DNA from: Macrostomum lignano
Taxonomy: Eukaryota
Length of the DNA stretch: 39,796 bases
Assembly: GCA_002269645.1 (NCBI GenBank)
Contig: NIVC01000066.1
Span: forward strand, 1-39,796
Reading direction: 5' to 3'
A program made the translations under genes and the position numbers. Every line of letters begins with the position of its first letter. The stretch's first letter is position 1. The notes under the pieces were generated by a model. It was not told where the DNA came from. It did not search any database and worked only from the letters and a program-made list of their open reading frames with translations. Positions 12,418 through 34,495 of the stretch are shown piece after piece.

Positions 12418-13040
12418 ACTAGACACATTCCTGGACACAGCTCCGCATGGCACTAGACACATTTCTGGACACAGCTCCGCATGGCACTAGACACATTTCT
12501 GGACAAAGCTCCGCATGGCACTAGACACATTTCTGGACACAGCTCCGCATGGCACTAGACACATTCCTGGACACAGCTCCGCATGGCACTAGACACATTC
12601 CTGGACACAGCTCCGCATGGCACTAGACACATTCCTGGACACAGCTTCGCATAGAACTAGACACATTCCTGGACACAGCTCCGCATGGCACTAGACACAT
12701 TCCTGGACACAGCTCCGCATGGCACTAGACACATTCCTGGACACAGCTTCGCATAGAACTAGACACATTCCTGGACACAGCTCCGCATGGCACTAGACAC
12801 ATTCCTGGACACAGCTCCGCATAGCACTAGACACATTCCTGGACACAGCTCCGCATGGCACTAGACACATTCCTGGACACAGCTCACGCGGCACTAGACA
12901 CATTCCTGGACACAGCTCCGCATGGCACTAGACACATTCCTGGACACAGCTCACGCGGCACTAGACACATTCCTGGACACAGCTCCACATAGAACTAGAC
13001 ACATTCCTGGACACAGCTCACGCGGCACTAGACACATTCC
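12418..13040. repeat. 34-bp tandem repeat, about 18 units
   Basis: Unit GGCACTAGACACATTCCTGGACACAGCTCCGCAT with 32- and 35-bp variants; no unique spacers. Confidence 0.95.
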
Positions 13041-13319
13041 TATTCAGCTAATTCATGCAGCCGATCAAATCTCGCCTGAATCCTGTCCACCTTCATTGGC
13101 TCACCATCAAAATAGTCTTCGTCGTTCAGGTCGTCAAAGGCGTTCTGCTCGTCGAATTCAAAGCTCCCGCCTGGCGCCGTATTGGCCAGATGGTGCATGC
13201 CCAACTGAGCGTAGGCGTCCGGCGCCGCGAATCTAAACTGATCTGTCGGGTAATAGTCCTGCCGGATGTCCGACGGTAGGTCGACCTGTTTGAGAAGATT
13301 AAAAAGGCGAATTGAGGAG
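13040..13319 (-). pseudogene. Possible 3' part of an unidentified coding sequence abutting the Polinton left end
   Basis: About 92 open codons of protein-like composition (IRLFNLLKQVDLPSDIRQDYYPTDQFRF...RLHELAE*) running from the element terminus; no family recognised. Confidence 0.3.
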
Positions 13320-13908
13320 AGTAGAAGGCATGAGGGGGCTTCTGGGACAAAATTTTTCACCTCCTCCATAATCCCATTAAATCCATCCATATTATCCCTG
13401 ACAGAATCAGAAAAAAAGGGGGGTCGCACCTGCTCACAAAACATCGTCCATAATCCCATTAAATCCATCCATATTATCCCCGACAGAATCAGAAAAAAAG
13501 GGGGGTCGCACTCGCTCACAAAACGTCCTCCATAATCCCATTAAATCCATCCATATTATCCTTGACAGAATAAGAAAAAAAGGGGGGTCGCACCCGCTCA
13601 CAAAACGTCCTCCATAATCCCATTAAATCTATCTATATTATCCCCGACAGAATCTTGAAAAAGGGGAGGGGTTGCACTTGATCCGAAAACTTTAATCCCA
13701 TTAAATCCATCCATATTATGACTGACAGAATATGGGAATATGGGTCCACTGACACCTGTTATGCTCACTGACACCGACATCCACCCATAGCATGTTCGAA
13801 ACAATCAGAAAATAATCTGCATTCTTCTCCCCACATTCAATCCGCAACGTGCTACCACATCCCTAAGACTTTAAATCATCAGCGCAGGGTCCTCACCCTT
13901 TGAAAAAA
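13320..13908 (+). repeat. Left terminal inverted repeat with 82-bp internal tandem subrepeats (4 plus a partial)
   Basis: Reverse complement of 29121-29587; subrepeat heads CCATAATCCCATTAAATC at 13366, 13448, 13530, 13612. Confidence 0.92.
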
Positions 13909-13926
13909 ATTAAATTCTCAATAAAA

Positions 13927-14163
13927 ATGTTTCCAGTTGTCTCTCCAGGTTCTTATTATACTCAGCCTAATCCATTGTACAAATCCAAGTACCAATGCAA
14001 ACTTGAATGCAGCGAATACATGAGAAAATATTGGCCCAGCGATGATATCAATGTCCCTAATATTAATCAAGCACTTAAATCTCACTGGTTTGAAAAACAC
14101 GGAGTAGTCATTAACAATTTTGACAGCTATTATAACTTTGCTGAAGTTATAAGGCAGTTGTAG
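13927..14163 (+). CDS. Small Polinton ORF of unknown function (78 aa)
   Basis: ATG preceded by AAAAA like other genes of the element; fills the gap between TIR and penton gene, convergent with it. Confidence 0.45.
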   Translation: MFPVVSPGSYYTQPNPLYKSKYQCKLECSEYMRKYWPSDDINVPNINQALKSHWFEKHGVVINNFDSYYNFAEVIRQL

Positions 14164-14224
14164 TAGCCAACTACACGGTTGTACCTGGCGGCTTATATCG
14201 TAATTTTACAAGTCTGAAGACGAC

Positions 14225-15082
14225 TCACATTCTCTCAATAATAATTGTTAGCACAAACTCTTCCCCGTTAAAATCAACACCAACGCCATCCTCTGTTTCA
14301 AACTGCAGAATGATTTCATGTATCTCTCTATTACTCAGAATCACTCTTTTCACGGGGTTTGGCTTTTGCACAAGCATTTTGCCACCAGCAACAGAGTTTG
14401 AAATGTTAAAAAGTATGTTGCTTCGTTTGCCCTTGAATATCCAATCATGGCTCAGATTGCTGCGAATTAATATATTCAAACCTTTGACAATGTCAGCGAT
14501 ATTTGGCGCCAAGTACATACCGGATATTAGCCGGGACACAGCAACAGTGCCAGGCGCCTGCAGCGGGCTTTGGTCTGTGGCGCCACCATAAACTCTCTTT
14601 TCAAATCCCAACTCGCGATACCAAGTGCCATCTTTAAACTCTACCTCTGCGTCCTTATGAACTTGCAAGACAACTCTCATGACAGTTAGATCATAAGTTA
14701 ATCTAACAGGGAACAGTTTATTTTCTGGTTTGCTTTCATCCGGTATCTCAAAATGCTTTCGTTTAGTGAAGACGTTCTCCAAGAAGTAATTATAAGTATC
14801 CACGCTCTGTGTGCTGACTGGAAATATCACAACCTCTGTTGTAGTACGCTTCCATTTGTAATAAAACTTGTTATTTTCCGCTGTCACATTGGGAACATTT
14901 GACCACCCAGTGAAATCATTGAGATAGACGTGGTAATTCGCCTCGGGATCCAAACGAAGTGGTTGCTCCAATTTTTGAATGAAGATTCCGTTTGACTCAG
15001 TAATGCGACCCGCTACAGTGATTGGAATGCTCTCCTTAGAGTGTGAAACAATGTTGTTCAGTCTTTCGGCTATGGCTTCCAT
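14225..15082 (-). CDS. Minor capsid (penton, single jelly-roll) protein
   Basis: 285 aa, beta-rich; NVPNVTAENNKFYY, LNILIRSNL, C-terminal EIILQFETEDGVGVDFNGEEFVLTIII resembling Polinton PX/penton; adjacent to the MCP gene. Confidence 0.8.
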   Translation of the reverse strand: MEAIAERLNNIVSHSKESIPITVAGRITESNGIFIQKLEQPLRLDPEANYHVYLNDFTGWSNVPNVTAENNKFYYKWKRTTTEVVIFPVSTQSVDTYNYFLENVFTKRKHFEIPDESKPENKLFPVRLTYDLTVMRVVLQVHKDAEVEFKDGTWYRELGFEKRVYGGATDQSPLQAPGTVAVSRLISGMYLAPNIADIVKGLNILIRSNLSHDWIFKGKRSNILFNISNSVAGGKMLVQKPNPVKRVILSNREIHEIILQFETEDGVGVDFNGEEFVLTIIIERM

Positions 15083-15104
15083 TTTTTTATTGAAAAAAAA
15101 TTAT

Positions 15105-16400
15105 TCAAACTTTACTAGACGAGTTATTGATCATATTGACCTTGATCTTCCTCTCAAATGCATAGATAATAAACAGATCAACAGCCGTTGCGGCACCAAA
15201 TTCTTTCCGCTCGATATTAGTCACAATGTTAACAGGGCTATTGTCTGTAGGCATTTGTCTAGCAGTCACATCAACACCAAATATTGGATATAGTTTTTTA
15301 TACTGCAAGGTTGTCAAAACAATACCGTTATTCTCTTTGACAGCCAAGTCCGACAGTTCATTGTAAAACTTACTAATCTTGTTCTCCGAGAAATTCCCAT
15401 TTTGTGGCAATGCAGGGTATAAATTGTCACTGATCTCATGTTGAATCGATCGAATGTTTCCATGTAGATATCTACCTACATTAGTTGTATTCCTCATAGT
15501 GACAATAATGTACCTTGGATTGCTACAGGAGCCTTCTTTAATGCAAATATTGTGTCTTGCGTCATTCCGCTCATCTCTGCACATATAAGCTGTATAAGCA
15601 ACATCAATGTCTTTCTCAATCGCCTTCAAGTATTCAGCTTTGAGTGCAGTCTTGGGCTCAATAATTTCTAAGTACAGCTCCACGCTAGTTAGCTTAATCT
15701 CCATCGATGTATGATTGGCCCCCGACCAAATTCCTCTGTTCCGATCATCTCTAGTCAGTCTAAATGTGTAGCTAAAGTTGCTTGTCAACCGATTGAAACT
15801 ATTACAGAAACCACTCATAAACCTCAAAGGTACAAAAATATCTACAGACCTAAACAGCGGATTCTTAGCAGCATCGTTCTCACCAGCAAGAGCATAGTTG
15901 TATCTCTCCTTTCTCTTTTTGTAACCAGGGTCATTCTCATCTCCTGTCTGTTCATTGGGGATGAATCCAGCACCGCTCCCCATCTGAATAAAATCCGGGT
16001 TCTCAATCAAGCACTGGGTATCATAGACCACACCAAAGTTTGCTATTCTTTCCAACTCTGTACTTCCATTGGACACATTAAACTCTTTGAACATATAAGC
16101 CCAGAAATTACTGGTTAGTGCGACATCCGCATTGTGTAGATCATCATTAGCATGAGCGGCGTCTGCGCCTCCTTTAGTTTTGAATTGAAACGTCATATAG
16201 AAGCCGCTCCTTAGACTGTGGACACTGACCAAAGACGAACATCCATTGTATGTAAATGTCAGTGTTTGGCCAGGACCGAGATTAGTTTCATTCTGATTTT
16301 CCTGACTGGGAACTCTTACCTGAGTCGCTTTGATTGTGCTATCATCACTCAAAATAGGCTTGTTAATTTTGTAGAAAACTGGTGTCAGTGGGTCGTTCAT
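15105..16400 (-). CDS. Major capsid protein (double jelly-roll, Polinton PY/hexon-like)
   Basis: 431 aa; IFVPLRFMSGFCNSF, NPRYIIV, LYP...NF, YKKLYPIFGVDV and YAFERKIKV motifs match the Polinton MCP pattern. Confidence 0.85.
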   Translation of the reverse strand: MNDPLTPVFYKINKPILSDDSTIKATQVRVPSQENQNETNLGPGQTLTFTYNGCSSLVSVHSLRSGFYMTFQFKTKGGADAAHANDDLHNADVALTSNFWAYMFKEFNVSNGSTELERIANFGVVYDTQCLIENPDFIQMGSGAGFIPNEQTGDENDPGYKKRKERYNYALAGENDAAKNPLFRSVDIFVPLRFMSGFCNSFNRLTSNFSYTFRLTRDDRNRGIWSGANHTSMEIKLTSVELYLEIIEPKTALKAEYLKAIEKDIDVAYTAYMCRDERNDARHNICIKEGSCSNPRYIIVTMRNTTNVGRYLHGNIRSIQHEISDNLYPALPQNGNFSENKISKFYNELSDLAVKENNGIVLTTLQYKKLYPIFGVDVTARQMPTDNSPVNIVTNIERKEFGAATAVDLFIIYAFERKIKVNMINNSSSKV

Positions 16401-16430
16401 TTTTTAACTAAAAATAAAATAAAATAAGAA

Positions 16431-17657
16431 ATGAAGCGAAAAAGTACACAGCAGATATCTGAACTAGAAAAGCTGGCGCAGGCAGAAAAGAGAGTTACCA
16501 AGCTAATAAATAAGGAGCAACAATCCTACAATGAGTTTGTCCAAGCAGCCACAGAGTTTCATAAACCCGGGTATGGAGAAGCTAAGAAAAATATTGATCA
16601 GGTCAAAGAAACTATCGACGACATACAGGAAACCCAAGTGCAAAAGGTTTTGGGCAAAATTCCAGAAGCACCACAGATACAACCGCAACGACAGATACAA
16701 CCGCAACCACAACAATCACAACCACAACAATCACAACCACAACAGCAACTAAAAGTGACAGATAACATTTTTGGACCAGTAGAGCGTGTCGAACATGATG
16801 GGAAATATGTATTTGGAATAAGTATGTGGAGAAAAAACATTTATAATGAACCAGTGGAATATTATATCGACATAAATAAGGAAAATATTTCTGTTGTCAA
16901 AGGCTCAGAAGCTATGAAAATTCCTTTCACAGACGCCTTACTGACTTTTATGACCAAGAACCAAGAGAGAATCTCGGACAAGCAGCTAAAGAACTACAGA
17001 GATCTAGTGACTTTTTCTCTTGCTAGAGATATAGAAATACTAAAGGTCCCAGAAGTTCTGAAACACATGTACAATGGCGGTGTCAACCTGACTAAATTCA
17101 AAAAGTACAAGCACTTTAAACAATGGTTTGGTTTGCCAGATCAGGCGGAAGTCATAAAATATCTAGAACAACAACAACAACAGCAACAACAACCACAACC
17201 ACAGCAGCAGCAACATTTCACAGAAGTACTCAGGCAACTGGAAAATGCAGATCCGACTCAAGTAGCTGAATATAAGAAACAAAACCCAACAGATTGGCAA
17301 CACTTAGAACAACACTCTCCAGATCGAATGAACAGAATCAAGCAAAGAGTTTTCACACCTCAACAAAGACAGGCACCACATGACAGTTCCATCTCTGAAA
17401 GTGAGCAGTCTTTTGCATCACCTCCCCAGCAGCCACAAGCCCAACCAACTCCACAACCTCAAGACCAACCGCCCTCAACTGGAAAAGGAATTTCTGAAAT
17501 CTACAAGCGAGTAGCGGTTCTTCTAGGAGCGGCAAAGACCGGAATGAAAGATGAAAATAGAAAAGAATTTGTCAACATCCTGGACAAAATGCTTGAGAGA
17601 AAATACATCGATAAGAGGGCGAGAGAGCTTCTGCTTTCGCGGTTCAACAAAAAATAA
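16431..17657 (+). CDS. Polinton accessory/structural protein with Gln-rich tracts and a C-terminal helical domain
   Basis: 408-aa open frame; C-terminal TGKG-ISEIYKRVAVLLGAAKTG...EFVNILDKML resembles a recurrent Polinton ORF C-terminus (recalled, not searched). Confidence 0.75.
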   Translation: MKRKSTQQISELEKLAQAEKRVTKLINKEQQSYNEFVQAATEFHKPGYGEAKKNIDQVKETIDDIQETQVQKVLGKIPEAPQIQPQRQIQPQPQQSQPQQSQPQQQLKVTDNIFGPVERVEHDGKYVFGISMWRKNIYNEPVEYYIDINKENISVVKGSEAMKIPFTDALLTFMTKNQERISDKQLKNYRDLVTFSLARDIEILKVPEVLKHMYNGGVNLTKFKKYKHFKQWFGLPDQAEVIKYLEQQQQQQQQPQPQQQQHFTEVLRQLENADPTQVAEYKKQNPTDWQHLEQHSPDRMNRIKQRVFTPQQRQAPHDSSISESEQSFASPPQQPQAQPTPQPQDQPPSTGKGISEIYKRVAVLLGAAKTGMKDENRKEFVNILDKMLERKYIDKRARELLLSRFNKK

Positions 17658-17673
17658 TTTATTTCAAGTAAAA

Positions 17674-18063
17674 ATGCCTCTTATTTTCGAAAAAGACATT
17701 GACAAATACTATGACAAAGAGGAACTTAATCTCATTAAACGCGGATCTGGACTTTTCCCTGCAGGCCACTATCCAAGAAAAGAACGCTCTGGGAATGGCC
17801 TTGCTGATTTGATCGCTCAGGGGGCTAAGATTTTTAAGGTCATTGGAGAGAACAAAGAGAACATCAAGAACGTTGCCGAAGCGGCTGGCAGTGTAGCCAC
17901 AGCAGCCAAAAAGATAAAGGATACTGTAACACCTAAACAAGAGATTCAACCTCCACTGGCCCCGCTGGCCCCGCTGGCCCCAAATCCAGACAGTGTGGAC
18001 CCTGCAGTCTATGAGAAGATGAGAGCAAGCATTAAAAAAGGAAGTGGTTTCAAATTTGACTAA
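17674..18063 (+). CDS. Basic core-protein-like ORF with GxG maturation-site motifs (129 aa)
   Basis: ATG after AAAA; KRGSG-L, RSGNG-L, KKGSG-F motifs and an amphipathic segment. Confidence 0.65.
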   Translation: MPLIFEKDIDKYYDKEELNLIKRGSGLFPAGHYPRKERSGNGLADLIAQGAKIFKVIGENKENIKNVAEAAGSVATAAKKIKDTVTPKQEIQPPLAPLAPLAPNPDSVDPAVYEKMRASIKKGSGFKFD

Positions 18064-18105
18064 AGGTACTTTCCGAGGGTACAAGAAATGTAAAGGTACA
18101 AGACT

Positions 18106-18210
18106 AGTCCCGAAATGACACATCTAAGTCCCAAAATGACACATCCAAGTCCCAAAATGACACATCTAAGTCCCAAAATAACACATTTAAGTCCCGAAAT
18201 GACACATCTA
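18106..18210. repeat. 21-bp tandem repeat, 5 units, intergenic
   Basis: AGTCCC(G/A)AAATGACACATCTA x5, ending 35 bp upstream of the ATPase ATG. Confidence 0.92.
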
Positions 18211-18245
18211 AATGATTTATTATTTAATTTTTTTTCATAGAAAAA

Positions 18246-19046
18246 ATGGACTTTTCAAACGACTTCAATCCTCACTGGACGCGTAATCAGATTAAGTTTT
18301 CTCATCATGAGTCAATCCCGAGTCACTTCAGATGCATTGTTGTTGGTTCATCAGGTTCAGGTAAAACATTCAGAGTCTTTAACATGCTTCTTAGACCTGG
18401 CTTTATCGACTATGACACTCTGCACATCTACTCTCCCACACTGTATCAAGATGAGTATAGAATGCTGATTGCAGGGCTTCAAAACAAGCTGAACAAAGAG
18501 GACATTATTGCATGTTTTAATAACCAAATGAGCCTTCCCAGTAACCCTGAAATTGTAGCTGCCGAATATGCAAAGCACCTCAAAGACAATGAAAAATGGC
18601 AGAACATTAAAGTGTTCACCTATGGAGATCCACAGGCTGATCCAAAGACCAAACTTCTACCCCAACCAGATGAGCTAGAAAAGGGGAGAAAGCATTTGAT
18701 CGTCTTTGATGATTGTATGACAGGCCCACAGAAGCAGATAGAAAACTATTTTACAAGAGGGCGACATAACAATTGTAATGTAATTTACATTGCACAGAAC
18801 TGGTTCGAGCTCCCGAACAAAACAATTCGTGGGAACTGCAATCTGATTCTCCTGTTTCCAACCATTCCACAGGACAGGTTAAAAAGATTTTACAATGAGG
18901 TCATTGCGCCTGCCTATTTCATAAATCCAACAAAAAACTCAAGCAGAAAGATTTCACAAGAGGAATTCGTTAATCTTTGCTATGACAAGTGGAATCAGCC
19001 TTACCAGTTTGTGATTATCAGCAAAGAAAAAAGAACTGTAATTTAA
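18246..19046 (+). CDS. Genome-packaging ATPase (A32/FtsK-HerA family)
   Basis: Walker A GSSGSGKT, Walker B LIVFDD, FTRGRHNN arginine motif, IYIAQ. Confidence 0.93.
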   Translation: MDFSNDFNPHWTRNQIKFSHHESIPSHFRCIVVGSSGSGKTFRVFNMLLRPGFIDYDTLHIYSPTLYQDEYRMLIAGLQNKLNKEDIIACFNNQMSLPSNPEIVAAEYAKHLKDNEKWQNIKVFTYGDPQADPKTKLLPQPDELEKGRKHLIVFDDCMTGPQKQIENYFTRGRHNNCNVIYIAQNWFELPNKTIRGNCNLILLFPTIPQDRLKRFYNEVIAPAYFINPTKNSSRKISQEEFVNLCYDKWNQPYQFVIISKEKRTVI

Positions 19047-19062
19047 AATTTGCTATTAAAAG

Positions 19063-19800
19063 ATGTCAATAAACTTTGCAGGTGAATCCATTTCTGGCAA
19101 CAGCGCTCTTACATCAGCTCAATATCCATCCTTGACAGGCGATATATCAACAGCGACGAAAAGATCCCAGAGATCAAACTGAATAAAAACAGACTGAAAC
19201 AATTAGAGCGCTCCATGCACCAGCTACAGATAAACATGAAGATCTCAGGCTTAAAGTAGCTAGGCAGAAGTTTGAAAGTGATAAGCTTTATGCCAGTTGT
19301 CACGCAACTAATGAACTTAGGTCAGAAATAACTTCGATAGTCTCGCAAATCAACGGTTTAAGAACAAATTTAGCATCGACAATTAATCTTCTGAGAAACT
19401 CCATTGATAGGCGGATGCGCATTCTTGAAGAAGGAGTTTTCACAAACACAGCTAAAGTGAGAATTTAGAAGAGTTCATGAACCAGTCAACAGCATTGCAT
19501 GATAGAATTAAAGAAAACGTCGCAACCAACACATGTAAAGTGAGGAATTTAGAAGAGTTCATGACTCAGTCAACAGCGTTGCATGATCAAATCAAAGTAA
19601 GAATTACTGCAAATAAAGTCTTTGTAGATTTAGTTTTTACCGAATGGCAGAAATCGGTGAGAAGAATCGGTCGTCTTGAACGCTTGCATAATCTCAAAAA
19701 CATTGACGCTGAAGAGGCACCACAGACCACAAGGGAAACAAGTGATCCAACCGACTTGTTTGAGATCATGCGTAGAATGGAGCTCACAGATAATGAATAG
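19063..19800 (+). pseudogene. Frameshifted coiled-coil ORF, possibly fibre-like
   Basis: MSINFAGES / LDRRYINSDEKIPEIKLNKNRL / APATDKHEDLRLK...RILEEGVFTNTAKVR / NLEEFM(N/T)QSTALHD(R/Q)IK x2 read in successive frames; the ORF track shows only the last 107 aa. Confidence 0.5.
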
Positions 19801-19908
19801 GCAGATTCAGAGACCTGTTGCCGTCACTGCAGACGAAGCAATCAACCGTAAAACAAATCTAACCACCACCAACTAGTTGCCGATTTTTTTTAAAAAATTC
19901 CCTTAAAA

Positions 19909-20565
19909 ATGGATGCTCAAAATTCTCTTTATGATCCGAACGCTCCCACAACACCTAGTGCACCTAGTGCACCCCAATATGAGCAACAAAAACTCTACCC
20001 CGTCATTACTTGTAACTCTCAACAGTTTCGACTAGTGGAGATTCAAAAAATGCGCGATGATCTTGAAAAAAATATTTTCCACAACACAAAGAAAATTAAG
20101 CGCTATGACAACCACTGTAAATTTTTCGACTACAGCAATATGATTCTAGGATCTGTGTCTGTTCTATCTGGATCTGCTGCAGCTGTCTCAGTGTTGCCAG
20201 TCATCACAGCCCCAATCGCAATCCCGCTCGGCTCTGTGGGTGCTGCATGTGGACTTATTTCAGCAATTACTGGAGCATTAGCGCGAAACAGGCGAAAAAA
20301 ACTAAAGCAGCTACAGGAGAAGCAAGTAAAAGAGAAAGGGGTGCACACTTCAATCATAGGGTACATTTCAAGGGCAATCGAGGATAAGTTCATTTCAGAG
20401 GATGAGTTCAAAACCATTCAGGATCTTTATGAACAATCAATTCGAATGAACTTGAACATGGTCGGTACTGATGACATGAGTCAGCTGAGAAATGAACTCG
20501 AGAAAGTTCTTCAACATTATGTGGAAAGAAGGACAACGAGAAGGACAACGAGAAATGCACAATGA
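19909..20565 (+). CDS. Polinton accessory protein with a hydrophobic hairpin
   Basis: 218 aa; LYP...FRLVEIQ, a ~45-residue hydrophobic Gly/Ala-rich stretch, basic RNRRKKLK, and DKFISEDEF. Confidence 0.8.
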   Translation: MDAQNSLYDPNAPTTPSAPSAPQYEQQKLYPVITCNSQQFRLVEIQKMRDDLEKNIFHNTKKIKRYDNHCKFFDYSNMILGSVSVLSGSAAAVSVLPVITAPIAIPLGSVGAACGLISAITGALARNRRKKLKQLQEKQVKEKGVHTSIIGYISRAIEDKFISEDEFKTIQDLYEQSIRMNLNMVGTDDMSQLRNELEKVLQHYVERRTTRRTTRNAQ

Positions 20566-20568
20566 ACC

Positions 20569-20968
20569 CTATGAAACACAGCCAAGAATAATTTCCTTGT
20601 AGGTCTTTCGTGTTTTGGTCATTGCATACAAAACAGTCATGCACAGCTCACCGCAAATATCACTGCTAAGACCTTGGAGAATAAAGTCTGAGCGATAAAT
20701 TTTTTTATTATTTTTCCCTTCATATAATTTCTTAGCTCTTCTGGTACTGCCGTCCCATAGCTATCGAAGTAATAACACTTGTGCTTGCGATCGGGATCAA
20801 TCACCCAGCAAACCCAATGAGATCCTGGCTTATCGGTGGTGTCAAAGTTCATGATGCCGCATTCTTTCTTAGAGGAAAATCAGGCAGAGTGTCCCTCATA
20901 AATATTCCTCTAAAGTTTGGGATTTCCAGTTCGTTAGCCAAATCTTCAAGAAAGTTATTTGTCGTCAT
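20569..20968 (-). pseudogene. Adenain-like cysteine maturation protease, two frameshifts as assembled
   Basis: FRGIFMRDTLP / ECGIMNFD...GSHWVCW...YYFDSYG / IYRSDFILQGLSSDICGELC: catalytic H, D, Q and C all present. Confidence 0.9.
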
Positions 20969-23900
20969 TTTTTATGAGGTTTATTAAACTTTCTCTCAAA
21001 CCTAAACCCAACTCCACCTCCTAAACCTAACCTCCAGTGCCCGAACGGTAGACTGTTGATATTGTCATCAAAAATGAATCTCTTGTTATCTGCACCTGAC
21101 AGTCCAATCTTCTTTTGCTGAATTGTGTGAATAATATGGTTTTTAGATTGTAGCTTTGAGAACTCATGTGATGTCTTTTTGTTGCAATTCAAGGCGTCTC
21201 TGTATTCAGCTTCATTAATTTCCTTCCTAACCACACGTTTCGGAATTCCCTTTGATTTTTTATTGGGTCTGACGACTCACATTTTATAAAATAGGACTTT
21301 GCTCTCAACCCAATGAATTCAGTGATTATGTCACCAGCAATCTCGTCCTTCATTTTCCCAATCACTTTCTTGTTAGTGGCGTCAAACACTTGATCGCCAT
21401 TCTGTGTCCTGCAAGATTCATCATACTCAGACAAGTCAAACAAATCTTTTTGCTGCAGCATGTCCTGATAAATGTCTTCTGTTTGAATGTCCATAATAAA
21501 ACTGTCTGTGTCAGTGTACAAGAGTTTCATTTTATCCTTGTACTGCTGCTTCATGCCATAGAAGAACTGGTACATCAGACGTTTTGATTCGTCGAGAACA
21601 GTGACACCTGTATAGATCGGCTTGCGCAGCGTCACCTTGGTTTTGTAAAATATGATCACACCTAAGTAGCTATTAAAGATATGGAGTTCTTTGAATGTTG
21701 GCTTTGACATATTTGCCTGAATAACAGCAGGCTCTGATGAGGTAACAAGTTTCAGGTTTGTTCTTTTCCGCTCATTCTCAAGAGTCTTGCCATAGACAGA
21801 GTTGTTGGCCAACTTAAAGAGGTTCTTGTCAAAGTCGTTGGTTGCTTTGGTCCTAAACTGGGTGTTCTTATCAATGTAGGGTTTCATCCACGCTTCCTCT
21901 GTAAATGTAAGAGCCCTGTGAACTTTGGTGACCCTGCAACCAAGTGAGATAAAATACTGAAGCAGTTTGTAATGGATTTTGTAACGTGTCTTGTTGTTTA
22001 GATTCTGTGTTAGTTTCTCTGTATGTTCTTTTTCTGTTCCTGACAGGTGCCAAGTTCCATTATTATCATTGGGAGTTTCGATTATTTTCGGGCACTTGAT
22101 GTTCTCTGGGAAGGGTGGAAAGTCAGAGAAATAGTCGTGAAGCTCTGGTGGAATGTAAACATCAACCTCATAAATGGCAGCCAATGAAAAGTCCCATTTG
22201 AATTCTGATGAGGGTAGCCATCGAAAATCTCTAACTGGAAGATCTTGACTCATCGCCCACCCGTAGAGATTATTAGCGTCCAAGTAAGTAATGTAGTTTG
22301 AGGGCTGCTCCTTATTGTAAGATTCAATGTAGGGATTGTTTGCTTTTGCATACCTGTTAACGCAAATTGAGATCCCCCTCGCTTTGACGATTCGACAAAA
22401 TTGTACATGTCAATGTCTGTAAGAAGTTCAATGTACCAATCTGGATCTTGATCCCATTTCATTTTAAGCAAAGATTCCCAGCTAGTGGCAGGCAGAGACA
22501 CATAATGTGCTGGATCGAGGCCATATGCTGTGTACCAGGTGTATCTGAAGGTTTCAAACACATCGGCCAGCAGAAACACATCTGTGAAGAGGTAAAGCAG
22601 GTGATACTGGAAGAAGTTTTGACAATTAAAGTAATTATAGACATGCTTCGCGTGCTCATAGTCTTTGTCAGAGATTCCAGAGTCTGTTAGCTTTGAAAAG
22701 AACTTCTCCTGTGGTGGTAAACCTTCTTCAAATACGTGATACCCAGTAATATTTTCATAGGGGTAGAAGCCTTTCTTTCTTAAAAGTTTAAATGATTCAT
22801 CACTGTTGTTAATTTTACTTGCAAACATCTTTGTATATGTACATTGTTCATCTTTTAGATTCTTGCTTAGTTCGTCTAGACTGGCAGCTAGAAATTGATA
22901 TGAATCCTTCAGTCTTATTTTACCTGTACCCGAATTATCCTGTTTAATATCAACACACTTAAACTTCTCCTTGTTCTCTGCGATGCAATCAAGGTGTATG
23001 TCTGGAATCATGCCGATTTTTTCAACTATTAAATGCATGTCATAGTTCTTTGCGTTGTGACAAAATATCGTTAGATCATGAATGTTCGATTTTAGCTTTA
23101 GATTACAGGTGTTATGCGCTGCACCTCTAAATTTCCCAGTAAGTGGCAGTGGTCCCTAACGGTGGGGTTTTTAATATTAGTGCAAGTTAAATGTTTCCTG
23201 CAGATGTGGCAATGAGTTGCTGATAGGAAATTGCTTTCATCCTCCTCAGTCATCATTATTGGAACAGGTTGAAGGGTGCTAATCACTTTTTGCAACTCTA
23301 ACATTCTGGCAATAAACTGCTCCACACACTGCTCTCCAAAGAAATAATTATACTCAACAAGTCCTTTTGTATTAATAAAGGCATATGCTACTGAATTGGG
23401 GATATGTTTTTGAGTTTGAGTTTGTTTTTGAGTTGGAGTTTGTTTTTGAGTTGTTTTTGAGTTTCTGGCACGATTGAGCATTCGAAATCAGCATATACAA
23501 CAAATGGGAGCTTCTCCATCTTGTGATAGTTCTTAAACCGGAGATACTTCTCTTCAGCTGAAGGAAGAGAGCAGTTTGTCGGGTGATCCTCGCATGATAA
23601 TTCATGCTCTGTTAGTTTTTCAAAGCGTTCAGGTCCACTGTAATGCTTAAGGCACAAGCGGCAGATGGCAACAGCCTCGTGATGATTATTCAACTGCTTG
23701 TGAATGAGTCTTGAAAGATCTTTAATCCAAACATAGTGAGCCTCCTCTAGTAAATTACCAATCACTAGAAGATCCACTTCAGTCCGCCTTTTCCCCTCGG
23801 ATCTAAAACGTCTTTGCTACATCTGACCGGTTGAACTTTCTCAGTTTTTCACTCCACTCAAAGACTGTGATTCTAATTTTGTTATTAAACACTTCTTCTA

Positions 23901-24862
23901 GCTTTGGGATCTGAGAGATCGCCAAGCCTCCTTTGTCAAACCTGATTCCCTTCTTTTCGCATTCGATGAGATAGTAGTTGAAATAATTTTGATAATTTGA
24001 GGTTCTTTCGGGGTGGTGAGGTACACTAAAAAGTGCAGAAAGAACTGCCCATAGAGCACAGCAATTGTCTTTATTTTTAACATTTATGCAAGCTTTTTTG
24101 CCGGCTAGCTTATGCGGGAGCTCTATATAAGAGGAGGCTTTAAGTGGGTCATATTTCATGACCATGACAGTCGCTCTTTGAATCCCTCCCACGACCCATC
24201 CGGAACCTCTGGATGTAAACGCTTCAATTTTCTTATTGACATCTTGAAGGAAAGGATCCAGTGTGTCTGTTGGGGTGAATGGCTTTGCCTTTGTTGTCAT
24301 GTAATACTCGAGATGCTCAGTGGGTTTTGCAGGCATATAAAACGCAATCTTGAATGATATCTGTAGTTTAAAGGTCTTGCGTGTTTTGAGTGTGTGATCA
24401 ACAACTGATTGGATGCTGTCTTTATAGTCGTAGATGTTTGCGGTGGTATCCGTTAATTGGGATTGTGTACTCTATGTAATGTTCTGTAAACTTCGTCTGT
24501 GCAAAATTAATCTCTTCAGTGGCAAGCTCCGACTCTTTTAAATGGATTAATTGCTCTAATTTCTCTTGTTCCTGCTTATTTTGTGGGTACTTTGCTTTTT
24601 CACCAGTGAGAGTTTCATATTTGTTAACTAAGTTGCGACTCCTCTCTTGGTGTTCCTTTGCAGAATTTTTTATAGGCGCATACTGGTTTGATTCTAATTG
24701 ATTGATGATTTCCAACTGTTTTTCATAGCTTCCCAGGTGACCAGGGTCGGTGTTGAACTTTTGTTTGCATGCTTCTCTTAGTGAATTACTTTTGTCTTGA
24801 AATGAGACGCCTTTTGAAAAATATTTGTTGACTAAATCTCTTGCTGGATTAGCTTTTGGCAT
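20965..24862 (-). pseudogene. polB: Protein-primed family B DNA polymerase, fragmented by about 7 frameshifts as assembled
   Basis: VVYADFE (ExoI), CHIC...VRDHCH.TGKFRGAAHNTCN, HNAKNYD (ExoII), KGFYPYE, DVFLLADVFE (ExoIII), YLDANNLYGWAM, KLANNSVYGK, YTDTDS, GKMKDE. Confidence 0.96.
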
Positions 24863-24984
24863 TTTTCTCGAAAATATAAAAAAAATTTTGAGGGTGACCA
24901 CCCTGATAGAAAAGTTGAACTGTTTCTACATCCTATAGTAGTATTAGGTTTATGAAGCTGGATAAAGTGGGGTTTTAAACCTCA

Positions 24985-25429
24985 TCACATCCGCATTATT
25001 GTAAACCCAGCATTGTGCAGTGTCATGATGGCTTTGACAATGTCAGACTTGCTTACAGAATTTTCATTCTCACAATCATCACGATCGGGCAGCCCTCTCC
25101 TGCCTTAATTGTTATACCTTTGTCTCTTGCAATCTTTTGCAATTCCAGCTGGTGGGCTCTATCATTCCCAGCTTTAACAGCAGTTGCTACACCTCCAGCT
25201 ACACCACCTGCGGCACTTACAGCGCCTGCAATGATCGGAATAAGAGCTGCTAATGGTAGGATTCCTCCTGACTTTTCATCTGTGATGCTGTGTCTTTGTC
25301 ATTACACTGAACTATTTGCTGCGTGGGATCGATTTTTACTTTGACACCTTTAATTGATATAATACCTGGTTTCTTTGATTCAATGATTTTATTGAGTTTA
25401 TTGATGGTTCTGGTTTCAATCTTTGTCAT
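24985..25429 (-). pseudogene. Adenovirus pX/mu-like core protein precursor, two frameshifts, absent from the ORF track
   Basis: Manual translation: MTKIETRTINKLNK... / ...EKSGG-ILPLAALIPIIAGAVSAAGGVAGGVATAV...KAGEG / ...KAIMTLHNAGFTIMRM*. Confidence 0.75.
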
Positions 25430-25445
25430 TTTTTATTTTAATATT

Positions 25446-26480
25446 TTAATTAATTTCTGTGTCAGCTGGTATCACTAGGAGTTCAGCTCTAGTGAATGAC
25501 CGCGTGGGGGATTTAGGGTTAAAGGCTTGAGATAAAAAGTAATAGTCACCGGAGTCGGAGGTAAAATGTCTGTCTATTTTATGCACATCAAGGCTGAAGT
25601 ATGGATCTGTAGCTCTTCTTTTGGTGTCTTCTCTAGCTCTCCAGGTAGATATAAAAAGCGTAGAAACTCAGAGTTTGTCAGTATGTATGGTGATTCAACT
25701 CCTGGAAGCTTAGGGTAGTTCGAGGTGTGTTTTGTGTTGTGTGTGTTGTGTGGGGTTGTCGTGTTGTTGTCTGTTCTATGAGATGCCTTAAGTTCGACAG
25801 TGTCTTGTTTAATTGCATGGGATGGTTTCAATCCAGTCATGCGTGTGACTTCATTGTTCAGTTGCTCTATAACAGTGGGGAGTCTTTCTGTCCACTTGGT
25901 ATAGTACTGCCCCGCACTCAGTTTGAGTTCTTGCGCTGTCTGCTTAGTGAATAGTCTCTTGGCTAGAGTTAGATTGAATCTTTCCACAAAAGCCTGGTCT
26001 CTGTGCAAGTTTGTTCTGCCATAGCGAATCTCTGTGTTTTTCTTTTCCATAAGGGATTTCACTACACCCATGAATTCCTTACCCGGGTCGGTCATAAAGA
26101 TTTGGGGGTATGTGAGCGGAGAGTTTTTATAAATATCTTGCAGTGCGCTGGCAACAACCTCTGACTTCTTCGTCTTGAGTGGGCGAGCTTCCTTATATCT
26201 GGAAGCAATGTCAATAATTGTAAGAGCATACTTGTAGCCTGAGTCGTTGGGGAGAAACAAAAGATCTGCTTGGTGCGCTTCATTAGGTTTATAAATACTG
26301 AAATGGGGCCTTTCAAATTTTACTGGTGGGAAATAGACTTGAAAGACAGCCTGCTTAGAGAGCCATTTTTCTACTGTAGCTTTTGGCTCTTACTCAGCTC
26401 CATGAGTTTACTAACGCATTTTTGCCTACAAAGAATCCTTTGTCGCTGTAGTAGAGTTTTTTAAGTTTCTGATCTGTCAT
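25446..26480 (-). pseudogene. int: Retroviral-like (rve) DDE integrase, three frameshifts as assembled
   Basis: KKLYYSDKGF N-terminus; HQADLLFLP (D), FMTDPGKEF (D), AFVERFNLTL (E); C-terminal GELE...RRATDPYFS...RSFTRAELLVIP. Confidence 0.93.
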
Positions 26481-26510
26481 TTATTTAAAAAGAAAATTTT
26501 AAATAAAATA

Positions 26511-27011
26511 ATGCAGCGCTCTGGTGGTAAAATAGATTCACATGGACTGATAGAAAAGCTTCCTCATCCAAACAAAGGCTGGACACTTCCCGGCTATAAA
26601 TATTGCGGGCCTTTGAATCCTCTTGAAATACAGCTGGATGGAAACAACAACCCAAATCCTGGGCATGAGCCTGTGAATGAGCTAGACTCTGTCTGCATGT
26701 GGCATGACGTTAAATATAGAGATTTTCCTGAGGAGAAGAATCGTTGGGACAAAGAAATGCTTAAGAGACTAGACAATATAGGGGCTTCAAGCGGATTTCG
26801 TGAGTCGATCGCTCGGAAGCTAGTTAAAGCTGTTATTTTTAGTAAGACAAAACTGGGGTTGGGGGTGTACGCCGAGGGCGGGTGTTTGGGGAGAGAGGGC
26901 GAGTGCACGGGGAGAGAGGGCGAACGCACGGGAGCAGAGTTTATTTTGTGCGCTCCTAACAATGAATTGGGAAGACTGCTGAAAGAGCTGGGGGTAGAAA
27001 GGGGCGCTTGA
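26511..27011 (+). CDS. Parvovirus VP1u-type phospholipase A2
   Basis: GWTLPGYKYCGPLN (Ca-binding loop) and PVNELDSVCMWHDVKY (HD catalytic motif), followed by DKEML. Confidence 0.9.
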   Translation: MQRSGGKIDSHGLIEKLPHPNKGWTLPGYKYCGPLNPLEIQLDGNNNPNPGHEPVNELDSVCMWHDVKYRDFPEEKNRWDKEMLKRLDNIGASSGFRESIARKLVKAVIFSKTKLGLGVYAEGGCLGREGECTGREGERTGAEFILCAPNNELGRLLKELGVERGA

Positions 27012-27853
27012 ATCGGGAAGGGCATGAGCAAGTGTGGATTTGAGTAAGTACAGTTTTTTATTCCCTAAAGAGTTGCGCACAAGAGAGATTCTCATTCTCC
27101 AGAGAGCTAAGAGCAGAAAATAAAAAGTCAACCGCTTCGCCGCCATTAGCATGCATGGACTGTGTATGTTGAGATTCCCTCCTTGATTGATATTGATTAT
27201 TGGCCAAATTGCGAGGCCAGTTGGCCCGCCGAGTTGGCCTCGGCCCGCCGATTTGGCCTCGGAATGTGGCCCGCCTAGTTGGTCTCTACGGTATGAAGAT
27301 ATGGGGCGGGGTAGAGAGAGGCGCTTGAGTCGGGAAGGGTAAACTATTATTCTCAGCCCTAACCAAGCGCAACAGCTGCATTTTGAAAAGTAGAAGCAGA
27401 AGGGGGGTGGGGTAACTGCTATTTGCTGAGGGAGCGCAGCCCTCTAATCGATTTTGCGAATGTACAAGTTCCACGCGTGCTTTCCTTTCCGCTTTGACAA
27501 ACCCAATCAACCAAGGAAATGTATGGGGACTTCAAGCGGGTGGAGGGAATCAATCGCTCGGAAGCTAGTTAAAGCACCCTCACATTCACACGCCTCATGT
27601 TCTATCGTTCACTGAGCTATATCGATTATTTTTTCCCTGCTTGACTCCAAGATTGTACAGTCTAAGAATTTTCTGGAATTTTCTAGCTGTATAGCTGTAT
27701 TTAAGCAAATGCAGAAACACTCGGGTTGATTCTCCCCGCATATGCCATCAACTGCGACTGAGAAACGACGACTGCAGGAACTTAAGCACGCTGAAAGCGA
27801 TCTAAGAAATTGTCCGCCAAACTAGAAGATTAGAAGACAAGAAGATTTAGAAA

Positions 27854-28531
27854 ATGGAAGTCGAGTGGAATCTTCATTTGACAGATAAGCAAGGCCTTTG
27901 TGCCATGCTACAAAGAGTTTTACAGGATATTCCGTCACATCTACAAGCAAGAAGAAGAGAGGAACTAACCACCTTTTTCGGTCTAGAAACTGGCGACCTA
28001 CCAATCGAGTTTTTCGCCATGGCCCCTGATGATATCGCCGCAGCGAATGAAGCGCAAAATGTGAGTAGCGAAGAGAAGAAGGCGGCGGCTCTGCAGAAGA
28101 AGATGGCGGATCTGCAGATATTCAGGGAGAAGTTGTACGCATCCCGCGTAACACTAGCTGATCAGCTGATGGACGCTGTTGATCACCAGCTTCCATCTGG
28201 CGAGCAGAACATCATCACTAGGGTGAAGGCGGCTCTAGCAAAATACAAGAAGACTCAAATTGGAGGTCTACATTGGATTCTCGAAGTTGGGCGGCTGCTA
28301 AAAACTTATCGCACCGAGAACTTTGGACAAGATGTTAAAGTGCGGTTCGCCCATTTGTGTAAAAATGTAAACATCCAGGAATCAACTGGCTATTTGTACA
28401 TTCGTCTGTACAAACTGTCTGTTACCTACCCAGGCTTGAGACAGGTGTCAATGCCAATTAGGGAACTAAACTCTAAGATGAAGTTTCTAGAAGAAATTTT
28501 GGCCAGTGATCCTGCGTGGAAAGTTGTGTAA
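27854..28531 (+). CDS. Helical accessory protein, possibly DNA-binding
   Basis: 225-aa open frame; ILEVGRLLK...F...NIQESTGYLYIRLYK resembles the DUF3102-like helical pattern (by eye only). Confidence 0.6.
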   Translation: MEVEWNLHLTDKQGLCAMLQRVLQDIPSHLQARRREELTTFFGLETGDLPIEFFAMAPDDIAAANEAQNVSSEEKKAAALQKKMADLQIFREKLYASRVTLADQLMDAVDHQLPSGEQNIITRVKAALAKYKKTQIGGLHWILEVGRLLKTYRTENFGQDVKVRFAHLCKNVNIQESTGYLYIRLYKLSVTYPGLRQVSMPIRELNSKMKFLEEILASDPAWKVV

Positions 28532-28558
28532 TTTTTAAATTCAGTTCATTTAGAATTT

Positions 28559-28998
28559 TTCTAACGCGTTAGAATTTCAAAGAGAAGATTCAACAACTGG
28601 AGACAGCCGATTGGTTAAGTAGAGGAGGGTAGCAATTTTCTCAGTACTGTGTGCAACTCAGTCGGTGGGTTTTAAATTCTAACGCTGTTAGAAATTTCTA
28701 TGTGAAAAGTTTCCCGCAAGATAAGCTTGGGCACACCAAATTTTCACATAGAAAATTCTAACGCGTTAGAGAATCTAGCTGCTGGCTCAAAGGAACGCTA
28801 GGCTGGCTCTGTATGGTTAAAAGAGGGGGGTAGAAATTTTCTAACGCCGTTAGAATTCTCTATGTGAAAAGCTTCCCGCATGATAAGCTTGGGCACACCA
28901 AATTTTCACATAGAGAATTCTAACGGCGTTAGAGAATCTAGCTGCTGGCTCAAAGGAACGCTAGGCTGGCTCTGTATGTTGTTGAAGAATTCTAACGC
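28559..28998. repeat. Array of TTCTAACG(N)CGTTAGA palindromes within a 162-bp tandem duplication
   Basis: Palindromes at 28559, 28677, 28756, 28839, 28918, half-site at 28990; period 162 bp; internal CTATGTGAAAA...TTTTCACATAG stem. Confidence 0.9.
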
Positions 28999-29120
28999 AG
29001 ATCCTACATAGTGTCTGTTTTTTCTACCATTTTTGATACTCTTGTAATAGTTAATACATATCCTATCAGCTGTGCAACCGTTAATAAATATATAATTCTT
29101 ACTAATGAATAATAAAATTA

Positions 29121-29587
29121 TTTTTTTTTTCAATGGGTAAGGACCCTGGGTCAGGGGATTTAAAGTTTTAGGGATGTGGTAGCACGTTGCGGATTGAATG
29201 TGGGGAGAAGAATGCAGATTATTTTCTGATTGTTTCGAAGATGCTATGGATGGATGTCAGTGGATTATGTCTGTGTCAGTGAGCATAACAGGTGTCCTAC
29301 TGTTATGCTCTGATTCTGTCAGGGATAATGCTCTGATTCTGTCAGGGATAATATGGATGGATTTAATTGGATTATGGAGGATGTTTTGTGAGCGAGTGCG
29401 ACCCCCCTTTTTTTCTTATTCTGTCGGGGATAATATGGATGGATTTAGGTGGATTATGGAGGACGTTTTCGGAGCGAGTGCGACCCCCCTTTTTTTCTGA
29501 TTCTGTCAGGGATAATATGGATGGATTTAATGGGATTATGGAGGAGGTGAAAAATTTTGTCCCAGAAGCCCCCTCATGCCTTCTACT
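29121..29587 (-). repeat. Right terminal inverted repeat with 82-bp subrepeats (2 plus a partial)
   Basis: Reverse complement of the left TIR; GGATTATGG heads at 29369, 29451, 29533. Confidence 0.92.
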
Positions 29588-30358
29588 ATGGTACGACCTC
29601 AGCTCACTCCTTTTATTTTTTTTAACCTTTTATGCCTATGGCCATTGTTGCTTACTTTCCCAATATTACTGATTAATTTTATATTATTAACGTGTTGTTG
29701 CTAAGACCCTCTGTCTAGCTTAAACTTTCTATTCTTCAGCATTAATTGGAGTGTCTCTAATAAACGTTGTTCAAAGTTTGCCGTGCGCAAAATTCGTATT
29801 AAGCGCTGAATAGAAACTCAAGTATTGCACAAATAAGAATACAGTATTATAATTGGTATGCGGTCAAAGCCTTTCCTACTACTCAATAACTCGTACTTAG
29901 CCAAATGTTCAACCTACTCCAATGCACTACCCTTAATCGAAGCCCACAAGCTACGTACACTCCCTCTCGCTACAAGACAAGGCTCTTAAAAAAGCTCCGA
30001 AGCAGCGCACTGGAAAAAATCACCAAGACAATTCTTGGCTCAACTTGCCAAAAGAAACAAAAGACACAAGTTTTCAATTTAAGACTGTATAGTGGGTGCT
30101 TGTCTACCAATTTTCTACCGTTATCAACCACACCTATATATTATGCGTCTTTTTCCTAATACGTTTTGCTTGCATTGCTTACATTTTTTACTAATTAAAT
30201 TTATTTTGCGGTTTACTCGCTTTACTTTAGCTATAGAAGAAATATACAAGAAACTAAAAAAACAGCTTACGTACAACAGTTGTTTTTCAAAGCCTCTATT
30301 AAATTACATAAAAAGCCCAAAGTTTAAAGTATCAATTCAAACCTCAGCCTTTCTTCAC

Positions 30359-31098: not shown

Positions 31099-31202
31099 AT
31101 GATGTGTTCCTTACTACCAAGACTTTCTTAGTAATCAAGGAACAATCACTTCTAGCTACTGCTAGGCAACCCAGTAATCAAACGAAGGTATTTATTACCT
31201 TG
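31099..31202 (-). ncRNA. Three-hairpin motif, copy e
   Basis: AAGGTA-N5-TACCTT, invariant ACTGGGTTGCCTAGC, CTAGC-N4-GCTAG, 52-nt hairpin with 23 pairs. RNA function and strand are inferred. Confidence 0.45.
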
Positions 31203-31215
31203 AGTCCTGACTAGT

Positions 31216-31320
31216 GTGATGTGTTCCTTATTACCCGACTTTCGATAATCAAGGAAAAATCACTTCTAGCTCAGTAGCTAGGCAACCCAGTAAGTCAACA
31301 GAAGGTATTCAATTACCTTG
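31216..31320 (-). ncRNA. Three-hairpin motif, copy d
   Basis: Same architecture with different loop sequences. Confidence 0.45.
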
Positions 31321-31463
31321 AGTCCTTTGGAGATCTCTCGGAGTAGCTCTCGATTAGTTTCAGTTGATCTCGTACAGTCACTTCTGACTATCGTTTGTAG
31401 ATCGGGTCCGATTCTTCTTTCTTCTTCAAATAGTTCCGGCCGGATTCTGTCGCTCGGACCAAT

Positions 31464-31566
31464 TGATGTGTCCCTTATTACCCGACTTATGGTAATCAAA
31501 GAACACTCACTTCTAGCTCAATAGCTAGGCAACCCAGTAAGTCAATTAAAGGTACTTCTTACCTTG
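31464..31566 (-). ncRNA. Three-hairpin motif, copy c
   Basis: Same architecture; G-U-preserving changes in the long stem. Confidence 0.45.
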
Positions 31567-32114
31567 ACGTCGCTTGGAGATATCTCTTCTGTAGTCTTCG
31601 AGTAGATCTCGCTTGTCTCTATGTGATCTCGTAGATCAGGCGCCTTGATTCTTCAGTTGCTCTGGTCCTGGTTCCTCTTGTACAGTACTTCCGATAAGTT
31701 CCTCCGGCCGGTATCTTCAGTCAGGACCAATCAGAGGCCTCGTATCAACAATGGGTACCCTGCGCCGAACAGCGGTTTGAATTAAGCCTCCTTCTTCTAG
31801 CAGTGCCTTTATGCACTCTAGGTATAGCTCCGGAAACCACTGATAGTCCTCTAAGATCTATCAGGGGCAGTCCTTCTGGAGACTGCAACCAATGGAGTCT
31901 AAACAGACTCAAGAGTCTCAACAGACTCAAATAGACTCAAGTCTCAATAGACTTGAGCGAGACGTCTCTAACACAACGGGCGCAAATAAGGAAGGCTTAC
32001 CGCAACAACTCGACCGAGTCTCGATTGCCTTGGTGATCAGGAAGTCCTAAGGCTTCCTCTTCGGAGCTTCTCCTCTCGTCGGGAGTTGGCTCCTGGTCCG
32101 CTTCGGACCGCTTG

Positions 32115-32122
32115 TATTTATA
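32115..32122 (-). promoter_or_regulatory. TATA box of unit B1
   Basis: TGCCTATAAATACAAG on the minus strand in all three units, followed by a GGTCC-N5-GGACC hairpin and a CG/GTAAGC donor 110-120 nt downstream. Confidence 0.55.
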
Positions 32123-32841: not shown

Positions 32842-32849
32842 TATTTATA
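32842..32849 (-). promoter_or_regulatory. TATA box of unit B2
   Basis: As for B1; donor at 32726-32731. Confidence 0.55.
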
Positions 32850-33593: not shown

Positions 33594-33596
33594 GCT

Positions 33597-34487: not shown

Positions 34488-34495
34488 TATTTATA
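34488..34495 (-). promoter_or_regulatory. TATA box of unit B3
   Basis: As for B1; donor at 34373-34378. Confidence 0.55.

Follow-up and report, generated by a model that had tools for sequence, protein, structure and literature searches.

Positions 13320 to 29587 of the window, by which we mean the whole 39,796-nucleotide stretch of contig NIVC01000066.1 from the Macrostomum lignano assembly GCA_002269645.1, hold an element of the Polinton/Maverick kind that a first-pass annotation had taken for an apparently complete genome of a virion-forming polintovirus. We hold with good confidence that this copy is a hybrid, probably joined by the assembler, and that it belongs to a large and young family which probably copies itself as free linear DNA and probably still packages that DNA into capsids. 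Taken by itself, the copy is unremarkable and in part artefactual; the greater importance lies with the family.

The hexamers directly outside the two ends of the element differ, GAGGAG on the left and ATGGTA on the right, and form no target-site duplication, and both flanks recur elsewhere in the assembly. The left flank is found on contig C2634, again joined to this element end, and on C1069, where no element is present; the sequence that follows GAGGAG on C1069 adjoins a further element end on C1707, where GAGGAG is the duplication. The right flank is found on C3805 next to an element end and, with no element, on C1704 and C3804, and the empty-site sequence preceding ATGGTA adjoins an element end on C3943, with ATGGTA as the duplication. 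These two insertions are here called X (left) and Y (right). The left repeat shows no substitution in its first 500 bases against both X ends (C2634, C1707), and the right repeat shows none against C3805 and 2 in 267 bases against the other Y end on C3943. Further inward, the window carries 0 substitutions over 1.7 kb against the left part of X and 0–1 per 500 bases over 4 kb against the right part of Y; from 16.9 to about 20 kb it is nearer to X (1–6 vs 6–34 substitutions per 500), and at 20.3–21.3 and 24.3–25.2 kb it is nearer to Y. Because the flanks mismatch and the duplication of each end sits on another contig, the window very probably combines the X left end with the Y right end. Both parent insertions have near-identical repeats at their own two ends; the 5% by which the two repeats of this copy differ stems from its hybrid origin and was rejected as a measure of age.

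An assembly mis-join, rather than a real crossover, seems to us the likelier source of the junction. An ectopic crossover between two integrated copies, with a rearranged host genome, predicts the same pattern of flanks and sequence; such recombination is an expected risk for Mavericks (PMC8097293), and 1 further sister of 17 has wholly unmatched flanks. We consider a real recombinant rather unlikely nonetheless, the contig being short, with flanks that reappear on contigs broken off inside the element (of the four partner contigs, all of which end within it, two carry duplicates of the window flanks), and the middle of the element matching neither parent exactly and holding all of the frameshifts, like a low-quality pooled consensus.

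Comparison with the natural open frames of one sister copy gave 15 frame changes, of which six are in the compared part of the gene for the protein-primed family B polymerase (PolB), two each in the integrase, pX-like and protease genes and three in the fibre-like gene, along with 1 stop in 23 aligned segments; the list of open reading frames (ORFs) shows one additional change in the N-terminal part of PolB. The genes for the penton, the major capsid protein (MCP), the 408-aa and 130-aa ORFs, the packaging ATPase, the 218-aa protein, the phospholipase A2 (PLA2) and the cargo gene are open. When the two insertions are compared with their counterparts on other contigs, single-base gaps make up most of the differences from the window (15 gaps against 4 substitutions over 9.2 kb, and 60 against 30 over 10 kb); against short-read contigs, which pool the family, the difference was a single base in 11 of 12 gap rows (the best 12 of 60). 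Most of the frameshifts are thus probably sequencing errors with the pattern of a long-read consensus. Programmed frameshifts or introns in PolB were rejected, the open-frame lengths scattering from 219 to 1310 aa across 146 matches.

The family was followed through the 764-Mb genome by an MCP search, in which 97 of 670 candidates were scored with a bias to the best scores, and by a polymerase search, in which 146 of 992 were scored. All scored MCP matches have at least 83% identity and 94 of the 97 are without a stop, which puts the number of close copies at well over 100 as a floor, less any loci that occur twice in the assembly. The stretch is present in 20 sequencing runs of 7 studies, all from one organism. 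A perfect 6-bp duplication flanks 20 of 24 two-ended sisters (13 of 17 in one set and 7 of 7 in a further set); among the remaining four of the 17-copy set, two match at 5 of 6 positions, one is shifted and one is unmatched, and three more sisters, outside the 17-copy count, have their second end beyond the examined stretch. Full-size copies cluster at 14.8–17.1 kb. These copies mark the family as large and young. Some copies are nested, tandem or rearranged (C1098, C2829, C1316, C2787 and C1462); on C1462, two element ends are oriented alike and have flanks that are reverse complements of each other.

Ratios of nonsynonymous to synonymous change (dN/dS) were obtained pairwise by the Nei-Gojobori method for 20 sister copies against the window, the comparisons being non-independent through this shared reference. 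For the MCP they are 0.08–0.10 against the second allele (dS >1) and 0.08–0.18 within its own allele; for the penton, 0.05–0.09 between alleles and 0.11–0.29 within the allele; and for the ATPase, 0.02–0.06 between alleles. PLA2 gave 0.07–0.24, the integrase 0.12–0.39 and the ~130-aa ORF 0.00–0.22, except for 0.53 in one, among comparisons with enough synonymous change. By this measure, the capsid genes are under purifying selection, and evidence for virion formation comes better from selection across the family than from the present copy. Values for the middle part of PolB (up to 0.93) were set aside, the window ORF being out of frame at its end.

Four sisters of 8.5–13.1 kb (C975, C1584, C1652 and C633) have one of their ends duplicated as a long inverted arm that replaces the other end. 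The arms measure 1.75–5.4 kb and are 98.8–99.9% identical, compared with 0.4–0.5 kb in three control copies; the capsid end is duplicated in three of the four and the integrase end in one, and each copy lies within a perfect direct 6-bp duplication. A read artefact is disfavoured because it would be expected to invert the flank too. C1330, considered as a fifth, was discarded because its additional penton piece is only 73% identical. The fold-backs would be most simply explained if a free linear genome underwent a template switch while replicating by strand displacement and then integrated normally; together with the perfect duplications, they point to replication outside the chromosome. Adenovirus and other protein-primed replicons produce fold-back defective genomes in which one end is present as a long inverted arm and the other is lost. 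The present copies share the arm but differ in that they sit in the chromosome as fixed insertions, flanked by a target-site duplication; literature searches at the level of titles found no paper on fold-back Polintons.

Two alleles, differing by about 20% in DNA, exist for the capsid genes and likewise for the ATPase gene. Among 15 duplication-matched copies that have both genes, all four combinations of capsid and ATPase alleles are found (4, 2, 6 and 3 times), and the C-terminal part of the polymerase is 98–100% identical in 16 of 16; one copy of the allele set lacks the ATPase and one is mosaic inside it, at 95%. An origin of these mixtures in the assembly is unlikely because the flanks of the copies match.

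In the mechanism proposed here, the polymerase would prime from its own terminal protein at the AG-repeat ends and copy by strand displacement, and template switches would give rise to the fold-back genomes and, between copies that replicate together, to recombinants. The integrase would insert any molecule with two correct ends. The ATPase would package the DNA into shells of MCP and penton, which the protease would mature, with the pX-like protein possibly serving as a core protein and PLA2 in entry. Protein-primed copying from repeated end motifs, 6-bp duplications and virion genes under selection are described for the class (PMC8097293; 10.1101/2023.08.22.554363). We lean towards the view that the family spreads at least partly via particles; particles of animal Mavericks were unobserved as of PMC8097293, as far as its available text goes, and a literature search gave no title reporting them.

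Several points weigh against this reading. The evidence consists of assembled contigs and shows neither particles nor free genomes nor transcripts. The middle of the window is exact to neither partner contig (0–9 substitutions per 500), and between 21.3 and 24.3 kb it is about equally near to both, so that the switch point is approximate. Only 4 of the 146 polymerase matches have a frame of at least 1200 aa, so real decay is possible, and match counts are not copy numbers, some loci being present twice in the assembly. Three of the four fold-backs were chosen for paired hits and C1584 came from an unselected set, so that they are no measure of frequency, and a collapsed assembly can inflate the identity of the arms. 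Gene conversion between integrated copies could yield the mixing of alleles, and selection between old alleles speaks of past, not present, function. Three of four sequencing runs cover nearly the whole element including its non-coding parts, and so perhaps derive from DNA, and the fourth covers 9 of 30 bins; these runs are uninformative on expression. Run X21 has, beside each of the positions 27840 and 25429, a single contig whose end is an A run or T run, a weak hint of transcript ends.

A family that now spreads only as a germ-line transposon, with capsid genes that are relics and with allele mixing by gene conversion, would agree with evidence that holds neither particles nor free genomes; its high copy number favours conversion, and the near-monomorphic polymerase could be the product of a conversion sweep. 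It has to contend, however, with dN/dS values of 0.08–0.18 (MCP) and 0.11–0.29 (penton) among same-allele copies that are only 2–5% apart at synonymous sites, as well as with the lack of stops in 94 of the 97 MCP matches scored, a set favouring the best scores, and with the full-size copies at 14.8–17.1 kb, and we regard it as rather unlikely. By far the least probable is one complete and intact provirus from a single insertion, the reading nearest to the apparently complete genome of the first-pass annotation, which would account for the usual size and for hallmark genes enclosed by matching inverted repeats but not for the missing target-site duplication, for ends that pair with different partner contigs or for five frameshifted genes. 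Where a genome abounds in near-identical copies, matching inverted repeats are no proof that a provirus is complete; it was the target-site check that revealed the hybrid, and the copy is unfit as a reference genome.

The preferred reading, a family that copies as free DNA and still packages it, can be taken further only tentatively, to a living and recombining Polinton population in which hundreds of young copies shuffle two old capsid types, ATPase alleles and cargo genes around one recently swept polymerase, and in which fold-back defective genomes re-integrate. If that were true, the genome would preserve, in the fold-backs, a direct record of how an animal Polinton replicates by protein-primed strand displacement, and particles could be found in this host. 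With a family so young and large, with selected capsids, reassorting modules and fold-backs, the model of replication and the question of virions can both be tested in a single host.

The element is a Polinton/Maverick (Polintoviricetes). Its size is within the 13–25 kb of this class and its terminal inverted repeats are within 100–1500 bp, and with respect to the 5–8 bp target-site duplication, both ends keep the 6-bp duplication of their own insertion on the partner contigs. The outer arms of the repeats (13320–13575 and 29332–29587, 256 nt each) are 95% complementary, and the similarity extends to about 13909 on the left and 29125 on the right, giving repeats of about 0.5–0.6 kb. The termini read AGTAGAAGG, a looser AG-N repeat when compared with the (AGT)2 or (AG)3 end motif. 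In sisters, the 82-bp unit of the terminal repeats has grown to some 17 to 39 copies (C3826:56322-59543, C1830:23827-26566, C67:335659-337087). The class assignment of the first-pass annotation stands, as do its limits for the repeats, which inverted-repeat comparison showed to be exact, and the gene blocks of alternating orientation with short gaps that it described are present in the ORF list. The hallmark gene set of a virion-forming polintovirus that it reported, with PLA2 and a pX-like gene, is likewise borne out by Pfam or predicted fold, the protease by a sub-threshold Pfam match.

In the Pfam scan of the window ORFs, judged against curated cut-offs, matches above cut-off were obtained for the MCP (double jelly-roll PF21738, E 6e-9), the ATPase (A32, PF04665, E 4e-6), PolB (PF03175, E 2e-10), the integrase (rve, PF00665, E 2e-8), PLA2 (PF08398, E 1e-13) and the pX-like gene (Adeno_PX, PF05829, E 2e-7). 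The protease matched PF00770 just below cut-off (E 1e-3 on the window fragment, 4e-4 in one sister), with HW and YFDSYG motifs visible, and the only matches of the putative fibre-like gene are to coiled-coil families, weak and below cut-off. The penton ORF has no Pfam match. Its predicted model, built on a 13-sequence alignment with a mean confidence (pLDDT) of 64, is a single jelly-roll whose best matches are the pentons of mavirus (Z 9.8; root-mean-square deviation (rmsd) 12.4, 202 residues aligned) and PBCV-1 (Z 9.8; rmsd 2.7, 110 aligned), with resemblance also to those of EhV-201, adenovirus and Sputnik and to minor capsid proteins in BFVD. The MCP model (pLDDT 61) matches Sputnik, PBCV-1 and iridovirus MCPs at E 1e-13 to 1e-11, with a Foldseek E of 1e-13 to the Sputnik MCP, at 8–12% identity to the best structural matches, one adintovirus entry included. 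Both models are of middling quality and the two search methods were concordant; the jelly-roll folds on which the earlier capsid calls depended thus appear in the predicted structures. The nearest database MCP is 76% identical and lies on a short contig, and a scan of IMG/VR using the MCP alignment gave no relative.

Table 1. Features of the element and its immediate flanks (window coordinates)
Feature	Position	Strand	Basis and remarks
Whole element	13320..29587		16,268 bp; Polinton/Maverick, adintovirus-type
Left flank GAGGAG, target-site duplication of insertion X	13314..13319	+	same hexamer past other X end on C1707; single at empty site C1069
Left terminal inverted repeat	13320..13909	+	starts AGTAGAAGG; 4.6 copies of 82-bp unit; insertion X
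Small ORF at inner edge of left repeat	13927..14163	+	no Pfam match
Minor capsid protein (penton), 285 aa, open	14225..15082	-	predicted fold; dN/dS 0.05–0.29
Major capsid protein, predicted double jelly-roll, 431 aa, open, allele A	15105..16400	-	PF21738; fold; dN/dS 0.08–0.18
408-aa Q/P-rich ORF, open, family-conserved	16431..17657	+	dN/dS 0.18–0.46; no Pfam match above cut-off
~130-aa ORF, open, amphipathic-looking	17674..18063	+	ORF list; dN/dS
21-bp unit, 5 copies, upstream of ATPase gene	18106..18211
A32/FtsK-type packaging ATPase, 266 aa, open	18246..19046	+	PF04665; Walker A GSSGSGKT; dN/dS 0.02–0.28
Coiled-coil, putative fibre-like gene, 3 frame changes	19063..19800	+	coiled-coil Pfam matches, all sub-threshold
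Approximate X-to-Y switch	19800..20300		substitutions per 500 bases vs C1707 and C3943
218-aa protein with hydrophobic hairpin, open	19909..20565	+	look-alikes: eukaryote/virus clusters
Putative adenain-type (C5) maturation protease, 2 frame changes	20572..20968	-	PF00770 below cut-off
Protein-primed family B polymerase region (PolB)	20965..24862	-	PF03175; PF02945 below cut-off in two sisters; frameshifted
pX (mu)-like core protein gene, 2 frame changes	24988..25429	-	PF05829
Retrovirus-like integrase, 2 frame changes	25449..26480	-	PF00665
Parvovirus-type phospholipase A2, open	26511..27011	+	PF08398 only; no pX domain; no group I intron; dN/dS 0.07–0.24
225-aa cargo gene in variable slot, open	27854..28531	+	one of several swappable genes
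Short inverted and direct repeats ahead of right terminal repeat	28545..29000
Right terminal inverted repeat	29125..29587	-	2.6 copies of 82-bp unit; ends CTACT; insertion Y
Right flank ATGGTA, target-site duplication of insertion Y	29588..29593	+	same hexamer before other Y end on C3943; single at empty site C1704

The polymerase has many relatives (5164 at E<=1e-60 among 7987 scored candidates), the nearest of which are 42–48% identical, with 48% as the best overall and 42–44% for the named ones (corals, a sponge and two snakes). Its PF03175 bit scores are only 41–59, one sister is missed by the profile, and the nearest named relatives carry no PF03175 call; these values, in place of a reference tree, suggest a polymerase of the divergent Beta/group I class, whose identity to the PF03175 type is below 30%. 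A check for near-identity to a described element found none (polymerase 42–48%, MCP 76%, Repbase being outside the search), and the element would seem to be a new family member within a known Polinton kind, for which a prior Repbase entry is possible. The N-terminal part of PolB contains a CINVKNKDNCC-type stretch which may resemble the OTU-like domain of adintoviruses; no Pfam match to an OTU domain was obtained in the window or in the sister ORFs scanned.

With regard to the remaining genes, the 408-aa ORF yielded nothing when compared pairwise with a coral protein, the ~130-aa ORF is, presumably and by likeness, a possible internal virion protein, and the 218-aa protein has an atlas score of 0.94 at a recognition under the reliable range. 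The cargo gene has 74 matches in the genome and 1 relative besides itself among 1.84 billion representatives; no Pfam family was found for it and its atlas matches were inconsistent, and a likeness to DUF3102-type helix-turn-helix proteins that had been considered found no support. The slot that it occupies varies among sisters in both length and gene, the distance from PLA2 to the end being 1.2–3.9 kb in 24 of 25 loci, and at least 3 types of cargo gene share a loose C-terminal pattern; the swappable genes are probably distantly related to each other. An ORF with hexapeptide (left-handed beta-helix) repeats was noted in a sister region (L136:285-1016), within or beside the element. No Rfam match, and so no group I intron, was present in the window or 11 loci, no TBP-like gene was detected by Pfam in the window ORFs, and avoidance of GGNCC was not seen in the element (16 observed vs 18.7 expected). 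An A-rich ATG, mostly behind a T/A-rich tract, was seen at 12 of 13 inspected gene starts (window 13927–27854), the thirteenth being a wrong coordinate; a simple AT-rich criterion picks out just 12 of the 583 ATGs of the element.

In the left flank, two likely host exons are found on the minus strand (window 13285–13043 and about 12340–12050), with a 34-bp satellite (12418–13041) filling the next intron. Insertion X is probably intronic, because the left end of the element lies 34 bases upstream of a pyrimidine-rich CAG acceptor. Farther out, window positions 121–4700, 5102–5257 and 9112–10229 hold fragments presumably related to non-LTR (long terminal repeat) retrotransposons, a 70-bp hairpin and a 28-bp satellite; two pieces that were scanned had no Pfam match. 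The right flank contains degenerate duplications with 0.75- and 1.65-kb spacing (31100–36200) and a RING-like ORF (35331–35753) whose Pfam match is below cut-off.

Among known systems, the group I vertebrate Mavericks (PMC8097293) share with the element the core genes, a length of about 16–17 kb, AG-type end repeats, 6-bp duplications and purifying selection on the capsid genes, and two snake proteins, at 44% identity, are among the named relatives of the element's polymerase. They differ in that their ends are (AGT)2 or (AG)3 whereas the element has AGTAGAAGG, another gene order and stand-alone PLA2 and pX genes. PMC8097293 reports 96% of copies as defective, with at most 38 intact per genome, and its available text makes no mention of allele reassortment or fold-back copies.

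The adintoviruses Alpha and Beta (PMC8502044) have the same array of PolB, rve integrase, FtsK-type ATPase, adenain, hexon, penton, PLA2-like and pX-like genes in animal genomes. PLA2 marks the virion modules of Alpha adintoviruses, where it is fused to a C-terminal pX as PLA2X (PMC8502044); no such fusion is found here, the pX of the element being a separate gene on the opposite strand. The element has a polymerase that looks Beta-like, with its weak PF03175 match, beside the Alpha-associated PLA2 (PMC8502044). Beta adintoviruses carry GasderminX and Cupiennin accessory genes; no Pfam match to a gasdermin was obtained in the ORFs scanned, no profile-level search having been made. Flatworm terms are absent from one supplement file of PMC8502044; Polinton-order insertions in flatworms are in print (10.1101/2025.04.19.649669), and so are endonuclease inserts in pPolB (PMC11071308; 10.1101/2023.08.22.554363).

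The polintoviruses of stony corals (PMC11131425) likewise reach hundreds to thousands of copies in invertebrate genomes, with expression shown for the corals; coral polymerases, at 42–44% identity, are among the nearest named ones, and one coral gene model also carries PLA2 and rve domains. As in the present family, replication and capsid modules re-associate in the mosaic polisuviruses (10.64898/2026.10.13.758929) and in the nematode Polintons (10.1101/2023.08.22.554363). Those mosaics, as far as the available parts of these papers go, are swaps between lineages, whereas in the present family the reassorting alleles, about 20% apart, are those of young copies within a single genome.

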